A stretch of 10,020 bases of DNA from Promethearchaeota archaeon (GTDB lineage Archaea; Asgardarchaeota; Lokiarchaeia; Sigyniarchaeales; SOKP01). The DNA is taken from the NCBI GenBank assembly GCA_019058245.1, contig JAHPZJ010000028.1, positions 224,503-234,522 of the forward strand, given 5' to 3'. Shown piece by piece: positions 1 through 10,020 of this stretch. The notes below the pieces were generated by a model. It was given only the letters and a program-made list of their open reading frames with translations. It was not told the origin of the DNA and did not search any database. The translations under genes and the position numbers were made by a program. Numbering within the stretch: position 1 is the stretch's first letter; each line of letters opens with the position of its first letter.

Positions 1-828
1 GAACCACTCATCCAAGCTTTAAAGGATGAAGATGAAATGATTCGAGCGTGGACAGCAGAAGCTCTCGGGAAAATGGGAAAACTTGCAGTAGAACCTCTCA
101 TTCATGCTCTAAAGGATGATCATAGATGGGTTCGAGAGAACGCAGCAGTAGCACTTGGGAAAATAGGAGATACAAGGTCAGTAGAACCTCTCATTCATGC
201 TCTAAAGGATGATCATAGATGGGTTCGAGAGAACGCAGCAGTAGCACTTGGGAAAATAGGAGATACAAGGTCAGTAGAACCTCTCATTCATGCTCTAAAG
301 GATGATCATAGATGGGTTCGAGAGAAAGCAGCAGGAGCTCTTGGGCAAATCGGTAATCCAAGAGCAGTAGAACCACTATTTCACACTTTAAAGGATAAAG
401 ATTCATATGTTCGAAAAGAGGCAGCAGAAGCACTTAAATTACTAAATTGGGAACCACTTAAAGAAACGGAGATGGTTTATTATTTTTTAGCGAAGCAAAA
501 TTGGGAAAAATTAGTAAAACTTGGGGAAATCGCGGTGGAACCTCTCATTCATGCTCTAAAGGAAGTAGCTGTTCGACAGAATGCAGCAGTAGCACTAGGG
601 GAAATAGGTGACACAAGGGCGGTCAATCCCCTTTTAAAGGTGGTAAGAGATAATTCAATTAATATGGACAGTAGAGTGGAGATAGTGTATGCAGTAAGGC
701 ATTTATCGGGAGATTGGCCCATTATTAAGTTAGATAGAAGTAATCATCGTGATAATACTATACCTGCTCATGGTCTTTGTCCTGGATCTCATACAGATGT
801 GGGTACTAAGAAATACCTTGAATTTTAA
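1..828 (+). CDS. HEAT/PBS-lyase-like repeat protein with C-terminal HxD-x8-C-x3-HxD tail (5'-partial)
   Basis: Frame 1 is open from base 1 ([17 protein letters not shown]...), so the ATG at 37 is internal and the gene starts upstream of the window. It has 31-aa repeats of the type [29 protein letters not shown] and a non-repeat tail [28 protein letters not shown]. Stop TAA at 826-828. Confidence 0.92.
86..326 (+). repeat. Perfect 93-bp coding tandem repeat (about 2.6 copies), one HEAT unit per copy
   Basis: GTAGAACCTCTCATTCATGCTCTAAAGGATGATCATAGATGGGTTCGAGAGAA... recurs at 88, 181 and 274. No mismatches were seen until position 327. Confidence 0.95.
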
Positions 829-1155: not shown

Positions 1156-3294
1156 ATGCCTTCTATTGAGGAATTGCTAAAAAAGAATGATGCTAAAGGT
1201 TTGATAAAGACTTTAAAAAATGAACGTTCTTATATTAGAGAAAGTGCTGTTAAGGCTCTTGGAAAGATTGGAGATCCAAGGACTGTAAAACCTCTCATTA
1301 AAGCTTTAAAAGATGAAAATAAGAATGTTCGAAAATTCACAGCAGAGACTCTTGGGAAGATTAAAGATCCAAAAGCCGTAGATCCACTACTTCAAGCTTT
1401 AAATGATGAAAATAAGGATGTTCGAAGATTCACAGCAGAGGCTCTTGGGAAGATTAAAGATCCAAAAGCCGTAGAACCATTAATTCAAGCTTTAAATGAT
1501 GAAAATACGGATGTTCAAGAATATGCAATAAAGGCACTAGGGTGGATAAGAGATGCAAGAGCAATAGATCCGCTAATTCAAGCTTTAAAAGACGAGAGTA
1601 AAGAAGGTCGAGATTACGTGACAATAGCATTAGGGTGGATTGGCGACACAAGAGCAATAGATCCACTCATTCAAGCTTTAAAAGACAGAAATATAAAGGT
1701 TCGAGAAAGTGCTGCAGAAGCACTAGGGAAAATAGGAGATCCAAGAGCAATTGAACCACTAATTCATTCTTTGAATGACATTAGTGAATTTGTTCAATGG
1801 AGAGCAACGGAGGCACTTGGGAATATAGGAGATCCAAGGGCTGTAGAACCTCTAATTCAACGTTTAAAACATAAAGATCCTATCAAACGCCGGAAAGCAG
1901 TGGTTTCTTTAGGGAAAATAGGAGATTCAAGAGCAGTAGAACCTCTAATTCAACTTTTAAAAGATAAAAATAGCGATGTTCGAAAGTTCACAATAGACGC
2001 ATTAAAAAAATTAAAATGGGATCCAATTAGTGAAATTGACAAAGTTTATTATTTTTTGGCTATAAAAAATTGGGAAGAATTAGTAAATCTAGGGAAAATC
2101 GCTGTAGAACCTTTGATCCAAACTTTAAACGATGAAAATAAAGATATTCGAGAGGGGTCAGCAAAAACTCTAGAGAAAATCGGGAATTCAGCATTGGAGT
2201 CATTAATCCAAGCCTTAAGAAACCAGAATTCTTTAGTTCGATGGAATGCAGTAGAATTACTTAAAAAATTGAAGTGGGAACCTATTAGTGACATAGACAA
2301 AGTCTACTATTTTTTGACCGTAAGATATGCTGAAGAATTAGTAAATCTAGGGAAAATTGCTGTGGAACCTCTAATTCAAGCGTTAGATGATGAAAATAAA
2401 GAAGTAAGAATTTTTGCGGCTTTAACTTTAGAAAAAATTGGAGATCCAAGAGCAGGAGACTCTCTAATCAAAAAGCTAGAAGATAAAGATGTTCGATCAT
2501 ACGCAAAAAGAGCTCTCGAGAAAATAGGGACCCCTACGGTAGACTTTTTAATTAAAACCTTAAAACATAAAAAAAAAAATGTAAGAATAAGTGTGATTGA
2601 ACTTCTTAATCTGATAAAAGATACAAGGGCAGTGGAACCTCTAATTCAAGTATTAAATGATGAGAATATTGATGTTCGAGCGAATGTAGTAGACGCTTTA
2701 GGGAATTTAGGAGATCTAAGGGCAGTAGAACCTCTAATTCAAGCATTAAAAGATAAAAATGACTTTATACGTAAAAGCGTAGTCATAGCTCTCGGAGAAA
2801 TAGGAGATCCTAGAGTAGTTGAGCCCCTAATCCAAACTTTAAAAGACAGAAATGAGTCTATACGTGAAAGAGTAGTTATTGCTCTTGAAAAAATAGGAGA
2901 TCCTAGGGCTGTTGAGCCGCTAATCCAAACCTTAAAGTATAAAAATAAATATTTTCGTGATTACTCCATCATCGCCCTAGGGAATATAGGAGATTCAAGA
3001 GCAATAGAACCATTAATCCAATTATTAGATGATGAATTTCATAGACGGGAGGTAGCAATAGCTCTAGGAAAAATAGGAGATACAAGAGCGGTCACCCCTC
3101 TTTTAAAGGTTGTAAGAGATAATTCGATTGATATGTGGAAAAGGGTGGAGATAGTGAGAGCAGTAAGACATTTAGCGGGGGATTGGCCTACTATTAAGAC
3201 AATTAAAAATCATTATGATTATACTGCAGATCCGGGAACAGTATGTGGTGGTTATCATAATGATAAGGGACCCGAAGAGACTCTTCTATTTTAA
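1156..3294 (+). CDS. 712-aa HEAT/PBS-lyase-like repeat protein with C-terminal HxD-x8-C-x3-HxD tail
   Basis: Roughly 20 repeats of about 31 aa ([30 protein letters not shown]), preceded by an SD. Tail NHYDYTADPGTVCGGYHNDKGPEETLLF. Paralogous to the upstream gene, with a shared VVRDNSI...RVEIV.AVRHL.GDWP cap. Confidence 0.95.
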   Translation: MPSIEELLKKNDAKGLIKTLKNERSYIRESAVKALGKIGDPRTVKPLIKALKDENKNVRKFTAETLGKIKDPKAVDPLLQALNDENKDVRRFTAEALGKIKDPKAVEPLIQALNDENTDVQEYAIKALGWIRDARAIDPLIQALKDESKEGRDYVTIALGWIGDTRAIDPLIQALKDRNIKVRESAAEALGKIGDPRAIEPLIHSLNDISEFVQWRATEALGNIGDPRAVEPLIQRLKHKDPIKRRKAVVSLGKIGDSRAVEPLIQLLKDKNSDVRKFTIDALKKLKWDPISEIDKVYYFLAIKNWEELVNLGKIAVEPLIQTLNDENKDIREGSAKTLEKIGNSALESLIQALRNQNSLVRWNAVELLKKLKWEPISDIDKVYYFLTVRYAEELVNLGKIAVEPLIQALDDENKEVRIFAALTLEKIGDPRAGDSLIKKLEDKDVRSYAKRALEKIGTPTVDFLIKTLKHKKKNVRISVIELLNLIKDTRAVEPLIQVLNDENIDVRANVVDALGNLGDLRAVEPLIQALKDKNDFIRKSVVIALGEIGDPRVVEPLIQTLKDRNESIRERVVIALEKIGDPRAVEPLIQTLKYKNKYFRDYSIIALGNIGDSRAIEPLIQLLDDEFHRREVAIALGKIGDTRAVTPLLKVVRDNSIDMWKRVEIVRAVRHLAGDWPTIKTIKNHYDYTADPGTVCGGYHNDKGPEETLLF
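1301..1516 (+). repeat. Near-identical 93-bp coding tandem duplication of a HEAT unit
   Basis: TTCACAGCAGAG(A/G)CTCTTGGGAAGATTAAAGATCCAAAAGCCGTAGA occurs twice, 93 nt apart. AAGCTTTAAAxGATGAAAATAxGxATGTTC occurs three times. Confidence 0.85.
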
Positions 3295-3417: not shown

Positions 3418-5868
3418 ATGATTAACACAAATTTTAAGAATTTTTATCCTCAATTTATGATAATCCCTAGTTCTAAGTGTCAAGCAACTTGTCAATATTG
3501 TTTTGGTCCACATAAAGGAGAAATAATGACTATTAAACAATGGGATAAGACTTTACAATACATTATAAAAATAACAAGTAATTGGGATGCATCTAACACC
3601 ATTCGGTTTCTATTTCATGGTGGTGAGCCTTTACTTGTTGGTCACCAATTCTTCAAACAATGTTTAAAAGATATTGAATCGGCTTTTGGTTTAAATCGCG
3701 TTAAAATCAATATTCAGAGCAATCTTTGGGAGTTAGATAGTGAATTTATAAAATTGTTTCGAAACTATAAGGTAAATTTAAGTACTAGTCTTGATGGTCC
3801 TGAAAAAATTACGGACACTCAACGCGGTAAAGGATATTTTAGGAAAACATGGGATAGTATCAAGAAAGCTCGTGAAAATGGGATTGAAATAGGGTGTATA
3901 GTTACATTCACAACCCAATCATCTTCGCATTGGAAAGAAATTCTGGAGTTTTTCAAAGAAAATCACATTTTAATTCACCTTCATCCTGCAATTCCAACTT
4001 TAGGAGCAAATGAGAACAATAAATATGCCATCTCCCCTGAACAATATGCACTATTATTATCAGAAATGTTTGCTTATTATTTAAAACATTACCAAGATTT
4101 GATAATTTCTTCTTTTGAAGAAATGATACATTTTGTTGTAAATGGAAATCATAAAACTTGTGAATATGGAGATTGTTTGGGTAAATTTCTTGCAATAGAT
4201 TCTTATGGAAATATTTATCCATGTCAACGATTTATTGGAAATTCAGAATTTTGTATTGGTAATATTTCTGATCATGAAGGTTTTAATAATTATAATATTT
4301 GGACACATCCAAACCTCTCAAAGTTCTACAATCGTAAACAGTTTTTAGAAGCTCAAGCGTCTAGAGCTCTACCAGGTCTTAAGAAGTATGTTCTTGGTGG
4401 TTGCCCTTATCAAGCATTCTCAGCTAAATCTAAAAACTTACATGATCCATATTGGGTTACCAAGAAAGCATTTTTTGATGAAATAGAAACAAAATATATT
4501 AAAGAATACGTTCATCTTTTGGATATACCAGAAGCTTCGTTAGGTACAAGAAAACTTGTAAATGATTTTCCTATTACCACAATTATTAAAAGTGGCAAGA
4601 ATCAAGATTACTTGACGCGAAATGCTAAAAGAATCATTGCTGCTTATTTATTAGGGATTGATCAAAACATTTATTCTGTAAATGAATCTTTAATTCGACT
4701 TGGTCTTATAAAAAACAAAAAATCGGGGCTTTATACTTTAAAATCATTTAAAAAGCGATTATTAGCAATGCAGTACAACAATCTCTATATACATTTAACA
4801 TGGTCATGTAATCTCAAATGCAACCATTGTTATGCTCCGACAACGCAATATTTAGAACAAAAATCAGATGATGAGAGAGAAAAGAGTCGACAAAATCAAA
4901 AGAGGATTCATTTCCCAATTGAAAAAAATCTTCTAAAACAGATCTTTTTTGATGCGAAAAATGTAAATTTTCAAAAAATCGTAATTACTGGAGGTGAACC
5001 TACATGTCATCCTCAATTTGAACAATTTGTATATTTTCTTAAGGGTATAAAACAAGAATTATCACCTTTAAAATTGGTCTTGAGAAGTAATTGGACTTTG
5101 AATTTAACGGAGAAACTTATGACTACTATCTCTGAAGTATTTGATCAAATTGTAGTAAGCGTTGATGGAGATCAAGCCTCTCATGATAAAAGACGGGGGA
5201 AAGGCTCATATCAAAATACAATTAATAATTTAAAGAAATATAAGGAATTAACTTTTAATACCCATAAATCTGCTAGATTACACCTTGCATGTACTTCTGA
5301 ATTTGAACATTTAACTTCCGAACTCAAGAGTAGTGTTTATAATCTTGCACAACAACTAGGAGACGAGGTTGGTGTTCGTTACCGTCCTATTTTACCAATT
5401 GGGAAAGGTAAAAGCTTAAATCTTGCCTTAAAAAAATATATATCTTCGGATCCATACCATGCATTACGATTTTTAGCATCTGATTACACTCCAACGGCAA
5501 CTTGTGGATTAGGACGGAATCTATATGTTGATCCATCGGGAGATGTTTATCCATGCTATGCATATAAACCTAAGGGTTCAATACTAGGAAACATCTTTGA
5601 ATCCAGTCTTGAAGTAATATTAAACTCTAAAAAATTTCAAGATTTATATAATTACGACGTTGATAAAAACGATTTTTGCAGATCTTGTGAGGTTCGATAC
5701 TTATGTGGAGGTGGATGTCAAGCATGGAATATAATCTCCGATAAAGATTCAATAAAGAAACCTCCCTCGTTCTGTGATGGAAAAACAAGTCCATATTATG
5801 AAAGAGCTCTTGATTGGATAAAAATCGCTAAGGAATTCTTAGGTATCAATATAAAGATAATATCTTGA
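3418..5868 (+). CDS. Tandem (double) radical SAM/SPASM domain protein, putative peptide/protein maturase
   Basis: Module 1: MIIPSSK-CQATCQYC (3478-3501), FHGGEP, STSLDGP, then CEYGDC...GNIYPC. From memory its N-terminus resembles archaeal TIGR04083-type peptide-modifying rSAMs, which is not verified by HMM. Module 2: LYIHLTWS-CNLKCNHC (4807-4830), ITGGEP, VSVDG, then SPASM TCGLG...GDVYPC...CRSCEVRYLCGGGC...FC. Confidence 0.93.
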   Translation: MINTNFKNFYPQFMIIPSSKCQATCQYCFGPHKGEIMTIKQWDKTLQYIIKITSNWDASNTIRFLFHGGEPLLVGHQFFKQCLKDIESAFGLNRVKINIQSNLWELDSEFIKLFRNYKVNLSTSLDGPEKITDTQRGKGYFRKTWDSIKKARENGIEIGCIVTFTTQSSSHWKEILEFFKENHILIHLHPAIPTLGANENNKYAISPEQYALLLSEMFAYYLKHYQDLIISSFEEMIHFVVNGNHKTCEYGDCLGKFLAIDSYGNIYPCQRFIGNSEFCIGNISDHEGFNNYNIWTHPNLSKFYNRKQFLEAQASRALPGLKKYVLGGCPYQAFSAKSKNLHDPYWVTKKAFFDEIETKYIKEYVHLLDIPEASLGTRKLVNDFPITTIIKSGKNQDYLTRNAKRIIAAYLLGIDQNIYSVNESLIRLGLIKNKKSGLYTLKSFKKRLLAMQYNNLYIHLTWSCNLKCNHCYAPTTQYLEQKSDDEREKSRQNQKRIHFPIEKNLLKQIFFDAKNVNFQKIVITGGEPTCHPQFEQFVYFLKGIKQELSPLKLVLRSNWTLNLTEKLMTTISEVFDQIVVSVDGDQASHDKRRGKGSYQNTINNLKKYKELTFNTHKSARLHLACTSEFEHLTSELKSSVYNLAQQLGDEVGVRYRPILPIGKGKSLNLALKKYISSDPYHALRFLASDYTPTATCGLGRNLYVDPSGDVYPCYAYKPKGSILGNIFESSLEVILNSKKFQDLYNYDVDKNDFCRSCEVRYLCGGGCQAWNIISDKDSIKKPPSFCDGKTSPYYERALDWIKIAKEFLGINIKIIS

Positions 5869-6037: not shown

Positions 6038-6334
6038 TTATATATCAAAAATTTCCCGTGCCTTTTCTTCGATAATAGAGTTATTCACTAAATCCCATAT
6101 TTCTGAATAATAAAATTTTTCGTCGTTCTTAACAATCAGGGGTAAACTTTCAACACACGCACTCATATCACAATAAAGACTATTAAATGTTGGATTTTTC
6201 ATCAATGGATCATCAAAATCTTTAGGATCTTGATAATCTAAAATAATATGAACTACATTCTTATCTGACAACCATTTAATTAATAAATCACAGAAAAAGC
6301 AATGCTTTTTAACTACTATTTTAAATTTAGCCAT
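6038..6334 (-). CDS. Small glutaredoxin/thioredoxin-fold-like protein (CxxC)
   Basis: 98 aa. An N-terminal beta strand is followed by KHCFFCDLLIKWL (CxxC at a helix start). A later ESLPLIV resembles the cis-Pro strand of the Grx fold, with an extra YCDMSAC just before it. Confidence 0.7.
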   Translation of the reverse strand: MAKFKIVVKKHCFFCDLLIKWLSDKNVVHIILDYQDPKDFDDPLMKNPTFNSLYCDMSACVESLPLIVKNDEKFYYSEIWDLVNNSIIEEKAREIFDI

Positions 6335-6356
6335 GAATGAAATACTACTTGATAAT

Positions 6357-6364
6357 TATTTAAA
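6357..6364 (-). promoter_or_regulatory. Putative TATA box for the glutaredoxin-like gene
   Basis: TTTAAATA on the minus strand, 23-30 nt upstream of ATG 6334, preceded by purine-rich AAAAATAAGA (BRE-like). The spacing suits a leaderless transcript. Confidence 0.4.
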
Positions 6365-6482
6365 TCTTATTTTAATTAATTATTATTCTTATCCTTAAAA
6401 ACACTATACTTGTAAATAATACATTTTAATATAGAAAAAGGTGATAGGATTAGCCAGTCTAGTGATTCTTTAAATTAGATAA

Positions 6483-6875
6483 TTACACACGGCGACCACG
6501 ATGCCCACCTTTTCTACGACAGTGGTCATGTGATTTGGGTGTAACTTCTTCAATCCTACCGACTTGTAGACCTGAACGAGCAAGTGCTCGGATGCATGCT
6601 TGAGCACCAGGACCAGGAGTTTGCGATTTGTTTCCCCCAGGAGCTCTTACTTTAATATGAATACCAGTAATTCCTTTATCTCGAAGTTCATTTGCGACAC
6701 GGAATCCCGCTTGCATTCCAGCGTATGGATTCGATTCATCTCTATCTGCCTTAACAACCATACCACCAGTACATTTTGCGAAGGTTTCTGCTCCGCTGAG
6801 ATCTGTAGCTGTAACAATAGTATTATTATAAGAGCTGAAAATATGTACAATTGCCCATTTAATATCTTTGCTCAT
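6483..6875 (-). CDS. rps11: 30S ribosomal protein S11 (uS11)
   Basis: Archaeal uS11 signatures [46 protein letters not shown] and RGRRV. SD-like AGGTAA at 6881-6886. Confidence 0.98.
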
Positions 6876-6887
6876 TTTTATTACCTA

Positions 6888-7391
6888 CTAAGTTTTATCT
6901 TTTGCTACGGTTAATGGACTATTAGGAGCGAAATTGATCATATCTTCTTCTTCTTTTTTTACAATATAAGAAGGGGCGTTAATTTTTTTTCCTTTAACTT
7001 GAATATGTCCGTGGGTAATATATTGTCGTGCTTGATAAACAGTGCTAGAAAGCCCTTTTTCATAAACAAGGGTTTGTAATCTTCTTTTTAAGACATCTTC
7101 TACAGTTAAAAGAAGAACATCTTCAAATTCTGCTTCTGATCCGATAATGCCAAGACGATTTAATTTTTTAATAAGCGTTTGTTGTACTTCTAAAGCGTTT
7201 TCTTTGGATAAGGTTCTTGATTGTCGAGCAAGATTACGCCAGTTTCCTAGCATCGTACGCACTTTCCAATATTCCCTTTTGTTTCTAAGTCCATATTTGC
7301 CAATAAATTCGAGTTCTTCCATTATTCGATCTTTTTGATATGGATGTTTTGGTTTTTTAAATTTCTTCTTTAAGCGTCTTGGATCTCCCAT
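6888..7391 (-). CDS. rps4: 30S ribosomal protein S4 (uS4)
   Basis: Archaeal uS4 signatures MGDP, YGLRNKRE.W, RRLQTLV, ARQYITHGHI and PSYIV. SD AGGTGA at 7398-7403. Confidence 0.98.
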   Translation of the reverse strand: MGDPRRLKKKFKKPKHPYQKDRIMEELEFIGKYGLRNKREYWKVRTMLGNWRNLARQSRTLSKENALEVQQTLIKKLNRLGIIGSEAEFEDVLLLTVEDVLKRRLQTLVYEKGLSSTVYQARQYITHGHIQVKGKKINAPSYIVKKEEEDMINFAPNSPLTVAKDKT

Positions 7392-7408
7392 ACTTTTTCA
7401 CCTTTAGA

Positions 7409-7906
7409 TTATTTTTGTTGTTGTTTTTTAATTTGTTTCTTTCGTACGACACCAACAACTAATCCATGACGACCTGTACTTTTTGTTCGTTGTCCTCGAA
7501 CTTTTAATTTTAAGTGATGTCTAACTCCTTTATAGTTTTTCATTTTTTTCATTCTATCTATGTCTCTTTTGACGGTAATTTCCAATTTATTACTAATGAT
7601 ATGGAGATCTTCACCAGTACGTAAATCTTTTGGTCTATTTACCATCCAGTTAGGAATACCATTAACAACGGGATTTAGGATTATTTCTTCGATTTGGTTT
7701 AATTCTTTTTCGGAAATTGCTCCAATTCTTATGTTTGGGTCGATTCCTGCTACTTTTACAATAGCTTGAGCGAATCTCCTACCAATACCCGTAATTTGTG
7801 TTAGAGCATGTTCAATTTTGGCATTACCATCTACTTGTGATCTCAAATTGCGAAAAAATATCTTTTCTTTGAAATTTTTCGGTCGAATAGCAGATAAAGA
7901 ACTCAT
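7409..7906 (-). CDS. rps13: 30S ribosomal protein S13 (uS13)
   Basis: Signatures ALTQITGIGRRFA, IPNWMVNRPKD.RTGED.H and YKGVRH..LKVRGQRTKSTGR. First gene of the S13-S4-S11 cluster. Confidence 0.97.
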   Translation of the reverse strand: MSSLSAIRPKNFKEKIFFRNLRSQVDGNAKIEHALTQITGIGRRFAQAIVKVAGIDPNIRIGAISEKELNQIEEIILNPVVNGIPNWMVNRPKDLRTGEDLHIISNKLEITVKRDIDRMKKMKNYKGVRHHLKLKVRGQRTKSTGRHGLVVGVVRKKQIKKQQQK

Positions 7907-8197
7907 TCGAATACAATCAATTAATATTATATTTTATTTTTTGATATAGTAGTTGAAAATACAGAATTTAATAATAAATTTTTGCTTTTATCTAAGAATT
8001 AGGTGATAGCATATCAAAATTCTTTAAATTTTAAAATCTTATCTTGATTAAGGTTTTCAATGGGATGAAGATTTAATTGTTGAGTAATTCCAATACTTTA
8101 ACTGTAATTTCCAGATAATGTTTGTTTATATTCATTTATCACTTTTTATAGTAGTATAGGAGAGATCTTAAGAGTATAGTTATTAGGAAAATCGAAT

Positions 8198-8794
8198 TTA
8201 ATAATTTGGAGTTCTTTTTTTTTCTTCCATTTTTGAATTAATGTGCTTTTTGCATGTATTTCTCTTAGAGCCCGCAATTCTTAATAAAAGTGACAAACCA
8301 GGTTTCACTTCTTCAATAGGTTTAGATTCAATTAACTTATTATTAATTAATTCATTATAAAGTTCTTTACCTTTTTCCGTTCTAATAAGTACGGTATTCC
8401 ATCCCGAAGGAGACCCTATAGATCCTACTGAAATATCTGCTGATTCTGAGGTTAAATCATAGCATATTTCACAATCTTCACGGGCTAAATGAGAGATTTC
8501 TTTAATAGGCACACTTAATTCATCTCCTTTAATGGTATAGATAAAAAATTTTCCTTTATTGATATCCATCTTTTTAACATTTTTAATATCGACATTTGCT
8601 TTTTCACAGATTTTTAAAAGCGATTCATAAGAAAATGATTCCATGCAAAATATTCCAATCCTATATTCGATATTATCTAAGGAGGGGAATCCAATATTAT
8701 AAATCTTGGATTTAAGAAGTGCTTGCATTTGACAAGGTACGCCTACTACAGCAATTTTTTTATTCTTTAGCTCGGGTAAGTTAAGTATCTGTAA
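8198..8794 (-). pseudogene. N-terminally truncated coenzyme F420 hydrogenase/dehydrogenase beta-subunit (FrhB family) C-terminal domain
   Basis: Contains IGIFCMESF, CEICYDLTSESADISVGSIGSPSGWNTVLIRTEKG. The frame continues upstream of ATG 8728 as LQILNLPELKNKKIAVVGVPCQ, the canonical first motif of the FrhB C-terminal domain. It then reaches an in-frame stop at 8849-8851 with no ATG/GTG/TTG, and the N-terminal domain is absent. The 5' boundary is approximate. Confidence 0.8.
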
Positions 8795-9064
8795 TTTAAT
8801 CTTATATTCATGTTCATAATCAGTGATTAATGTTAACTTCGGTAAAATTTATTTATTTTTTTATTAAATTAATTTGTTAAATAATGAAATATCTAATAGA
8901 GAGAATTTAAATATCAAAATTTTGATTTTATTTTTATATTTGAAGATCAATAAAAAATGATCATTTTGACGGAAGAACAAATATTATCAAAATTAAATGA
9001 TTTAATTAATGAATTCACAGATTCTCTAGTTATAATCAAAAAATTAAAATAGAGATTGATAAAT

Positions 9065-9475
9065 ATGTCTCAAGAAAAAATTATGGCAGATATAGATGTG
9101 CTTCTTAGAGATTTTACTGATTCACAGAGTGATGTTCAAGGACAAATCCTTATCGCCTATCCACAAGGATTACCTATCGGAGAAACCTGGAAAGGTGCTG
9201 TAGATCCAATTATGATTGGTGCTCTTTCAGCAGCAGTGAAATTAACCTTTCAGAATCTATGTAAAAATCTAAAAAAAGGAAATTTAAAGCGTTTATTTAT
9301 GAACAGTGAAAAAGGAAGAGTTATTATACAAAATGCGGGTGATAAAGCTATTTTATCAACAATAATTGATCAAGAAGCTGATATTGTGAGGATTTCATTT
9401 GAAATGAGTAATATAGCAGTCAGATTGGAAAAATTATTAAAAGATTTTGATTACGACAAAGCATTTGAGGTGTAG
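9065..9475 (+). CDS. Roadblock/LC7 domain protein
   Basis: Pattern DVQGQILIAYPQGLPI...IGALSAAV...GNLKRLFMNSEKGRVII..AGDKAILSTI matches the roadblock/LC7 (MglB/LAMTOR2-like) fold. ATG at 9065 is preferred over TTG at 9056. Confidence 0.85.
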   Translation: MSQEKIMADIDVLLRDFTDSQSDVQGQILIAYPQGLPIGETWKGAVDPIMIGALSAAVKLTFQNLCKNLKKGNLKRLFMNSEKGRVIIQNAGDKAILSTIIDQEADIVRISFEMSNIAVRLEKLLKDFDYDKAFEV

Positions 9476-9479
9476 AAAA

Positions 9480-10020
9480 ATGGAATTAATTAATTTTTTA
9501 CAAGAAATAGAAGATATTACAGATATTAATGGAACCTTCTTCATTAATATTGAAGATAACAAGGTGATTGAATCAACTATCCAATTTCAAATTCCAATAG
9601 AAATATTATGGGAAATTGGTGTTTTAAGAGATACTTTTCAACAGTTTGCAAATGGAATAGAACATGGACAGCTTCGTGACATTATGATAGAAGGAGATAA
9701 GGGATATATATTAATTTATAATGTTTCTGATTATGTGATTTTAATGGCAATGGCAGCTAATGATATCAATCTTGCTTATGTTAAATTAGCAATGATTAAC
9801 ATTCTTGATAAAATTAGAACACACTTTAAAACAATGGGAGAACAATTACTTAAAATTGGAGCAAAAGAGCTAGGTGTTGTTGGAGGGAGAACTGGTTTAG
9901 TTGTACAATCGGCATTTACTACAACTCCTGTTGAAAACCCTATTGCTGCAAAAGTCGAACCAGAACCTATTGCTGCAAAAGTCGAACCAGAACCTATTGC
10001 TGCAAAAGTCGAACCAGAAC
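9480..10020 (+). CDS. Roadblock/LC7-domain protein with repetitive Pro/Ala/Glu linker (3'-partial; not in the ORF track)
   Basis: Manual translation from ATG 9480, 4 nt after the upstream stop: MELINFLQEIEDITDINGTFFINIEDNKVIESTI...FQQFANGIEHGQLRDIMIEGDKGYILIYNVSDYVILMAMAANDINLAYVKLAM...PVEN(PIAAKVEPE)3. The frame is open to the window end. Confidence 0.85.
   Translation, partial: MELINFLQEIEDITDINGTFFINIEDNKVIESTIQFQIPIEILWEIGVLRDTFQQFANGIEHGQLRDIMIEGDKGYILIYNVSDYVILMAMAANDINLAYVKLAMINILDKIRTHFKTMGEQLLKIGAKELGVVGGRTGLVVQSAFTTTPVENPIAAKVEPEPIAAKVEPEPIAAKVEPE
9939..10020 (+). repeat. Perfect 27-bp coding tandem repeat, at least 3 copies (PIAAKVEPE)
   Basis: CCTATTGCTGCAAAAGTCGAACCAGAA at 9939, 9966 and 9993, head-to-tail with no spacers, running off the window. 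Confidence 0.97.

Follow-up and report, generated by a model that had tools for sequence, protein, structure and literature searches.

Tandem radical-SAM/SPASM enzymes and the H-x-D tails of HEAT-repeat proteins, a candidate in-protein modification system in a Promethearchaeota archaeon and in bacteria

Gene content of the window

The window analyzed here is a stretch of 10,020 nucleotides from contig JAHPZJ010000028.1 (assembly GCA_019058245.1) of a Promethearchaeota archaeon. Two genes encoding HEAT-PBS repeat proteins, each ending in a short tail with two H-x-D motifs and one Cys, are followed by a gene encoding two radical-SAM/SPASM modules. The features are listed below.

1 to 828, + strand: 3' part of the gene for HEAT-PBS repeat protein 1 (566 residues in the genome; start upstream of the window; spans a run of N)
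643 to 714, + strand: cap helices of protein 1, the conserved pre-tail segment and putative enzyme-recognition element (38 of 47 residues identical in protein 2, whose corresponding segment was docked)
745 to 753, + strand: first H-x-D of tail 1, a motif conserved in the family
778 to 780, + strand: loop Cys of tail 1, the sole Cys in the in-window part of protein 1, tied to module 2
790 to 798, + strand: second H-x-D of tail 1, from translation and paralogue alignment
799 to 828, + strand: follower of tail 1, with a G after the last H-x-D and a terminal hydrophobic-x-F, then the stop codon (from family counts)
1156 to 3294, + strand: HEAT-PBS repeat protein 2, 712 residues, paralogue of protein 1
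3112 to 3183, + strand: cap helices of protein 2, predicted enzyme-docking segment (complex model, partner residues 17 to 40)
3208 to 3291, + strand: tail 2 including its follower (H-x-D at 3211 to 3219 and 3256 to 3264; the only Cys of protein 2 at 3244 to 3246)
3418 to 5868, + strand: tandem enzyme, modules 1 and 2 in one polypeptide of 816 residues, 3' of both HEAT-PBS genes
3418 to 4620, + strand: radical-SAM/SPASM module 1, TIGR04083-like, HGGEP type (AuxI Cys kept, four AuxII Cys lost in its clade)
about 4486 to 4524, + strand: predicted cap-binding helix of module 1 (complex model)
4741 to 5868, + strand: radical-SAM/SPASM module 2, TGGEP type, with seven conserved SPASM Cys

The first-pass annotation had singled out the two tails for eleven residues held at fixed spacing. 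The translations (positions 742 to 825 and 3208 to 3291) were as described, and their gapless alignment revealed exactly the 11 named residues shared out of 28. At the DNA level, 50 of 87 nucleotides are identical. The two paralogues share 81% of the 47 residues that precede the tail (38/47) versus 39% of the tail itself (11/28), which makes the tail a variable core located behind a conserved cap. In the 3.09-Mb, 76% complete genome (G000), the sequence H-x-D-x8-C-x3-H-x-D occurs only in tails 1 and 2 among the open reading frames (ORFs), and two H-x-D motifs within the last 45 residues were found in 3 of 1921 ORFs of at least 200 residues, two of which encode proteins 1 and 2. The two other HEAT-PBS proteins of this genome have no such tail.

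The downstream part of the window (6038 to 10020) contains neighbors unrelated to the HEAT/radical-SAM cassette. These include a small ORF (6038 to 6334) with a CxxC motif, glutaredoxin-like by eye and without a Pfam match, ribosomal S11-S4-S13 genes (by sequence), the C-terminal part of FrhB, and two roadblock-family genes, the second of which ends in a 10-residue tandem repeat. The genome encodes five actin-family proteins and roadblock pairs, a gene content that would point to an Asgard archaeon. A P-loop kinase gene located upstream of HEAT protein 1 was considered as an AAA_28 accessory gene of the type described below and was discarded, being divergent, AAA_18-like, and clustering apart.

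Conserved and variable positions in the tail family

Collection of homologous tails confirmed the conservation of the H-x-D pair. At least two H-x-D motifs were present in 201 of 202 distinct homologous tails, and H-x-D, Cys, and H-x-D followed each other in that order, at any spacing, in 176 of the 202. The fixed spacing did not hold as a general rule, since the full motif was confined to two of the 202 tails, both of them the window paralogues, and the 8/3 spacing to six. Likewise, the N, T, G (of C-x-G), and L positions that had appeared invariant in the paralogue pair were variable in the family: N-H-x-D was found in 23, H-x-D-x-T in 36, C-x-G-x-H-x-D in 7, and the terminal L-x-F in 8 of the 202 tails. 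The closest orthologue found, whose enzyme is 73% identical, has tail spacings of 5/3 and 4/1, and the nearest relatives in the window's clade have spacings of 5/3, 4/1, or 4/4 or lack the Cys. The general plan of the tail comprises a helical cap, two to six H-x-D motifs, in most cases evenly distributed on both sides of a loop that contains a single Cys of variable position, and a short G/F follower, in which a G is present within 1 to 3 residues after the last H-x-D (188/202) and a hydrophobic-x-F sequence near the end (170/202).

In a set of 138 distinct tails, the H-x-D motifs numbered two (68 tails), four (37), three (27), six (3), five (2), or one (1), and the Cys residues one (119), two (8), or zero (11). 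Asp was present at position +2 of 120 of 179 inner His residues, versus a background of 13%. Equal numbers of motifs preceded and followed the Cys in 94 of the 122 tails counted as single-Cys, and 30 of 32 four-motif tails were of the 2+2 type. The position of the Cys floats, the D-to-C gap varying from 2 to 13 residues and the C-to-H gap from 0 to 9. The spacing of H-x-D motifs within an arm was mostly 6 and was even in 73 of 100 cases, so that His and Asp would share one face. The 2+2 tails showed no significant mirror symmetry in their spacings (P of about 0.05), most of which are 6 anyway. The sequence R-(V/T)-N occupies the slot of a missing H-x-D, in three different slots, in 6 of 27 odd-count versus 1 of 98 even-count tails (representatives P0131, P0135, P0189, P0264, P0265, and P0269). 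This replacement would fit equally well with hydrogen-bond pairing and with chemistry.

A profile of the cap and tail matched 2517 representatives at E values up to 0.001, in part via HEAT similarity; it contains H-x-D and Cys columns, and motif frequencies are inflated among these representatives but not among locus-derived tails. The tail matches no family in Pfam or NCBIfam, and a CDGSH-like or other known metal-binding domain was discarded on this ground. Sequence and fold searches of the PDB and a search of the ESM Atlas returned generic HEAT and alphaRep matches only (best Z of 6.2), which are uninformative for the core. The tail proteins comprise 137 to 1571 residues, and hydrophobic stretches were present in 5 of 80. 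One 901-residue protein (L114:3621-6326) contains two cap-tail modules, one of them internal. An ORF of 59 codons that encodes nothing but a cap and tail is located head-on, downstream of the enzyme gene, in the closest relative (L193:4938-5117, - strand), and may be a remnant or a minimal precursor.

Linkage of the tail to the enzyme

One to five HEAT proteins with tails of this kind are encoded in the loci of enzyme homologues, which were found in Chloroflexota, Armatimonadota, Acidobacteriota, Actinomycetota, Thermodesulfobacteriota, and metagenomes. Conversely, all eight tail proteins fetched blind to their neighbors adjoin an enzyme gene or, at a contig edge, the end of one. In the source phylum, the tail was found in 2 of 400 genomes (G000 and G068), and the same two were those with an orthologue of the enzyme when 101 relatives were considered. 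Of 401 genomes that represent the class of G400 (an Anaerolineae-level sample), at least 7 encode the tail, at least 8 the enzyme, and at least 6 both, these counts being lower bounds obtained with only some of the candidates scored. Co-occurrence of enzyme and tail in the same genome holds even when the genes are apart. In an Anaerolineaceae-level lineage (G401, G892, G928, G953, G402, G985, and G1012), the two genes are far from each other (about 545 kb in G892), yet they co-occur and co-vary. None of the 69 loci encoding methanogen single-module TIGR04083 enzymes carries the tail; some of them encode a TIGR04165 peptide instead.

No protease or transporter gene recurs in 37 loci, no signal peptide recurs with the tail proteins, and no other candidate substrate or small partner, including HxsD, recurs in the loci. 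In eight loci (L043, L116, L117, L200, and L202 to L205), the HEAT array is followed by an AAA_28 kinase-like gene, in some cases accompanied by a TrmO-like SAM-binding domain or fused to it; this gene is absent from the window. Viral contigs contained no orthologue of the enzyme (best E value of 1e-19). The first-pass annotation had proposed that the tails are RiPP core peptides modified by a radical-SAM enzyme. Two-way co-occurrence, combined with the joint loss of Cys and module 2 and with the docking model described below, gives good support to the idea that the tail is acted on by a radical-SAM enzyme, its reactive residues being conserved and its spacers free to vary, but a RiPP core in the strict sense is disfavored by the lack of any recurring protease, exporter, or signal peptide.

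Coupling of the loop Cys to module 2

Of the 70 tails associated with two-module enzymes, 65 have the loop Cys (39 of 40 systems), which is missing from all 10 tails associated with one-module enzymes; the H-x-D motifs were retained in the single-module systems. The tails of the first four module-1-only loci were all Cys-less. Absence of the Cys was then predicted for six single-module genomes (G665, G402, G985, G1012, G926, and G968, which account for 6 of the 10 cases) and was found in all of them, the two-module genomes checked alongside all having the loop Cys. According to the module 1 tree, the single-module state must have arisen five separate times, each change being forced by branches with good support, and the ten cases therefore count as five. 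In one lineage with orthologous tails, loss of module 2 left the four H-x-D motifs in place while the loop around the former Cys drifted freely. Module 2 was not found elsewhere in the genome of six single-module MAGs with the queries used, bearing in mind that MAGs may be incomplete. The exceptions were one-way and consisted of Cys-less tails despite the presence of two modules (G068, in which module 2 is intact, and four tails).

This coupling points to a division of labor in which one head is devoted to the H-x-D motifs and the other to the Cys. Where the enzyme has module 1 only, nothing in the core but H-x-D is conserved, which makes these motifs the likely target of this module. The same coupling would also be expected if the Cys merely bound module 2 and was left unmodified.

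Families and cluster ligands of the enzyme modules

The whole enzyme scored 313 against TIGR04083, above the cutoff of 300, module 1 alone scored 285, and a single-module relative (L125) scored 406; TIGR04083 is the only family reflected in the name given by NCBI. The best families for module 1 were TIGR04083, DynA, anSME, and YhhB, all but the first being far below cutoff, as were the best families for module 2, StsB (score of 89, cutoff of 625) and PapB (83, cutoff of 340). The cutoffs were not reached for the cyclophane formers YhhB (99/445), AmcB (86/425), GrrM (77/310), and XyeB (56/450) or for HxsB (83 to 110, cutoff of 370). A Pfam search of the enzyme detected no RRE or PqqD domain. 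The nearest solved structures are those of ChlB and anSME.

Seven SPASM Cys residues are invariant in module 2, whereas module 1 has eight, and only four in the window's clade. The four AuxII Cys of module 1 (window positions 4320 to 4460) are all lost in a clade of four enzymes, including those of L032, L193, and L194 (support of 100/100), and are kept in all members outside that clade, including the methanogen TIGR04083 enzymes. The caps found with this four-enzyme clade diverge from the bacterial cap. Without the AuxII ligands, module 1 of the window's clade may be altered or weak; AuxII is not essential in CrpC (PMC13692751). Binding of a substrate Cys at an open AuxI site has been reported for CteB, PapB, and Tte1186 and proposed for CrpC, whereas anSME and SuiB are fully ligated (PMC6231123, PMC10177961, PMC13692751). 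The seven-Cys SPASM of module 2 appears to match that of the open-site thioether formers, although a non-Cys fourth ligand is still possible, and the eight-Cys SPASM of module 1 would be of the fully ligated anSME/cyclophane type.

Structure models

The model of the complex between the enzyme and the cap-tail segment scored 0.65 versus 0.01 for the best control, with at least 35% shared contacts and a partner pLDDT of about 51. The mark applied to such models, built from custom-made alignments, was reached by 58 of 80 solved pairs and 2 of 110 mismatched pairs. Contacts involve the cap, not the core, and enzyme residues 318 to 322 and 357 to 369, at the end of module 1. The model thus supports a leader-like role of the cap.

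For a four-motif bacterial member, AlphaFold with a 60-row alignment predicted a confident helical cap followed by a low-confidence hairpin with strands at residues 62 to 68 and 80 to 86 (pLDDT of 57 to 71). Single-sequence prediction for a six-motif member gave a coil for the tail (pLDDT of <50). A His2/Asp2/Cys metal-binding hairpin had been put forward initially as the alternative to a RiPP core. The hairpin itself is plausible in view of the balanced motif counts and the low-confidence AlphaFold model, but the variable position of the Cys, and the fact that entire lineages do without it, make a metal site of that composition unlikely.

Proposed modification and alternatives

We favor as the probable explanation a modification within the protein, module 1 acting on the H-x-D motifs, module 2 forming a thioether from the Cys, and the product staying on the HEAT protein. 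The cap helices would be gripped by the C-terminal helix of module 1 in the manner of a leader peptide. Comparative genomics suggests that module 1 would most likely abstract an H atom from C-beta of Asp and join this carbon to the His ring, the link being formed either within a motif, as in cyclophanes of the three-residue type, or across the hairpin; the balanced motif counts favor some pairing between motifs. The loop Cys would be bound at the open AuxI iron of module 2 and a thioether would be formed, leading to a rigid cross-linked hairpin kept on a cytoplasmic HEAT solenoid. Metal binding by the modified hairpin is compatible with this scheme.

The system might instead be a true RiPP pathway, with the HEAT solenoid serving as a giant leader from which a housekeeping protease frees the cross-linked tail as a small peptide. 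A conserved cap followed by a hypervariable core, the up to four or five paralogues with different cores per locus, the miniature members of 137 residues, and the fit of H-x-D to the aromatic-x-x motif of triceptides (PMC12912966) are in agreement with such a pathway. It is nevertheless unlikely, since proteases and transporters do not recur in the 37 loci, the core is closed by a conserved follower, the module also occurs internally in a chain (L114), and solenoids of 137 to 1571 residues, with hydrophobic stretches in just 5 of 80 tail proteins, would be a costly leader.

Slightly less credible is an unmodified metal hairpin in which facing H-x-D motifs provide His2/Asp2 rungs, the enzyme acting elsewhere or obtaining metal or sulfur from the tail. 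Such a hairpin would leave unexplained the strict tie to one enzyme family and the disappearance of the Cys together with module 2, in spite of the balance of the motifs about the loop, their mostly even spacing within arms, and the two strands predicted by AlphaFold. The floating Cys, the R-x-N substitutes, which are poor metal ligands, and the coil obtained in the single-sequence model also argue against it.

HEAT-PBS proteins are commonly binding scaffolds, and the HEAT protein could serve the enzyme as a scaffold or chaperone, or inhibit it, with the tail as a substrate mimic or docking tag, the true substrate being elsewhere. This role would account for the cap alone being the confident part of the predicted interface, and the AAA_28 kinase-like and TrmO-like genes of eight loci hint at small-molecule chemistry. 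We consider it improbable, because no other candidate substrate recurs, the TIGR04165 peptide was not found in the three genomes searched, and arrays of paralogues and motif repeats that vary in number suit substrates more than tags. Finally, chance or mere paralogy, that is, duplicated genes sharing a drifting, functionless C-terminal end, could explain the spacing and the N, T, G, and L positions as shared by descent only but has a negligible probability for H-x-D and Cys, being refuted by the family counts in several phyla, the two-way gene linkage, and the coupling of Cys to module 2.

Biological role

The biological role is the weakest step of the proposal. A conflict or defense effector is tentatively favored over metal handling, which has lower odds, and over a released peptide, which has lower odds still. 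The preference for conflict or defense is based on the patchy spread of the system, the paralogue arrays with hypervariable loops, the toxin-antitoxin, helicase, and insertion sequence neighbors, and the analogy with HXS. AbiEi/AbiEii toxin-antitoxin pairs lie beside the cassettes of L200 and L205, large helicase genes beside L033 and L121, and insertion sequences beside the G068 cassette (L032), which hints at mobile or defense-island settings. PADLOC identified no specific defense system and returned generic HEAT and radical-SAM matches only. More speculatively, and with doubt, the tail could be a tip staple on the HEAT solenoid, with His-Asp links in one to four rungs and a loop thioether, forming a tunable effector exchanged between bacteria and Asgard archaea and used in defense or competition.

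Comparison with known systems

The tail is widespread and is undescribed in the literature searched, outside which most subscription papers lie. That literature contained no substrate or reaction for TIGR04083 and nothing combining radical SAM, HEAT repeat, and RiPP or HxD and SPASM. If our proposal is correct, the uncharacterized TIGR04083-like clade gains a first substrate and a division of labor, the known radical-SAM chemistry is extended by a His-Asp cross-link formed on whole proteins, and the natural one- and two-module versions allow each reaction to be tested separately. The system would be one of few candidates for RiPP-like protein modification in an Asgard-type archaeon, and an enzyme that recognizes a short cap and tolerates very variable cores would be of interest for peptide and protein engineering.

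The methanogen TIGR04083/TIGR04165 system, known as hypothetical equivalogs of NCBIfam, provides homologues of module 1, the methanogen enzymes forming one clade of the same tree. It differs by a single module with both SPASM clusters, in place of two modules and a module 1 whose AuxII ligands are lost in the clade, and by its partner, which, where seen, is a small CxxC peptide and never a HEAT-HxD protein. The TIGR04165 Cys-rich peptide had no match in G000 (76% complete), G068, or G892 and none in the window. Methanogen TIGR04165 peptides (L049:9778-9978 and others) share a turn of the H-x-A-H-A-like type, conserved and flanked by two CxxC motifs, possibly a His-centered target for the same enzyme clade.

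In the HXS system, HxS repeats are modified by a radical-SAM pair (PMC13128918). Like the window system, HXS combines two radical-SAM units with a protein substrate in which His-x-(polar) triplets are repeated, and the modification stays on a protein effector, as proposed here. Unlike HXS (HxsA, HxsB, HxsC, and HxsD), the window system has H-x-D rather than H-x-S motifs, fused enzymes, and no HxsD, and the exported peptidoglycan-binding protein is replaced by a HEAT solenoid with a loop Cys tied to module 2. Triceptide formation targets aromatic-x-x sequences, His being possible at position 1, and there is precedent for a His-x-Ser cyclophane (PMC12912966). The triceptide formers YhhB, ChlB, and MicB, and DynA, resemble the window system in the aromatic-x-x motif and the HGGEP-type radical-SAM/SPASM enzyme, whereas the window substrate is a large folded protein with motifs paired about a loop and without a protease or exporter, and the scores are far below cutoff.

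QhpD/QhpC, CrpC/CrpA (TIGR04463; PMC13692751), and the sactipeptide and ranthipeptide maturases share with module 2 a seven-Cys SPASM and a Cys-bearing protein substrate, with an archaeal precedent. The enzyme-dependent substrate Cys that characterizes sactipeptides and ranthipeptides was found by comparison (65/70 versus 0/10, five lineages). The differences lie in the single Cys per tail rather than Cys-rich repeats, the absence of a detected RRE, and the fusion behind a different module. The short precursor, leader removal, and export genes of a strict RiPP were not found, and cleavage of the tail by an unlinked protease is possible. The system works like HXS, triceptides, and CrpC/QhpD but is not a member of any of these three groups on the basis of enzyme family, motif, or gene set.
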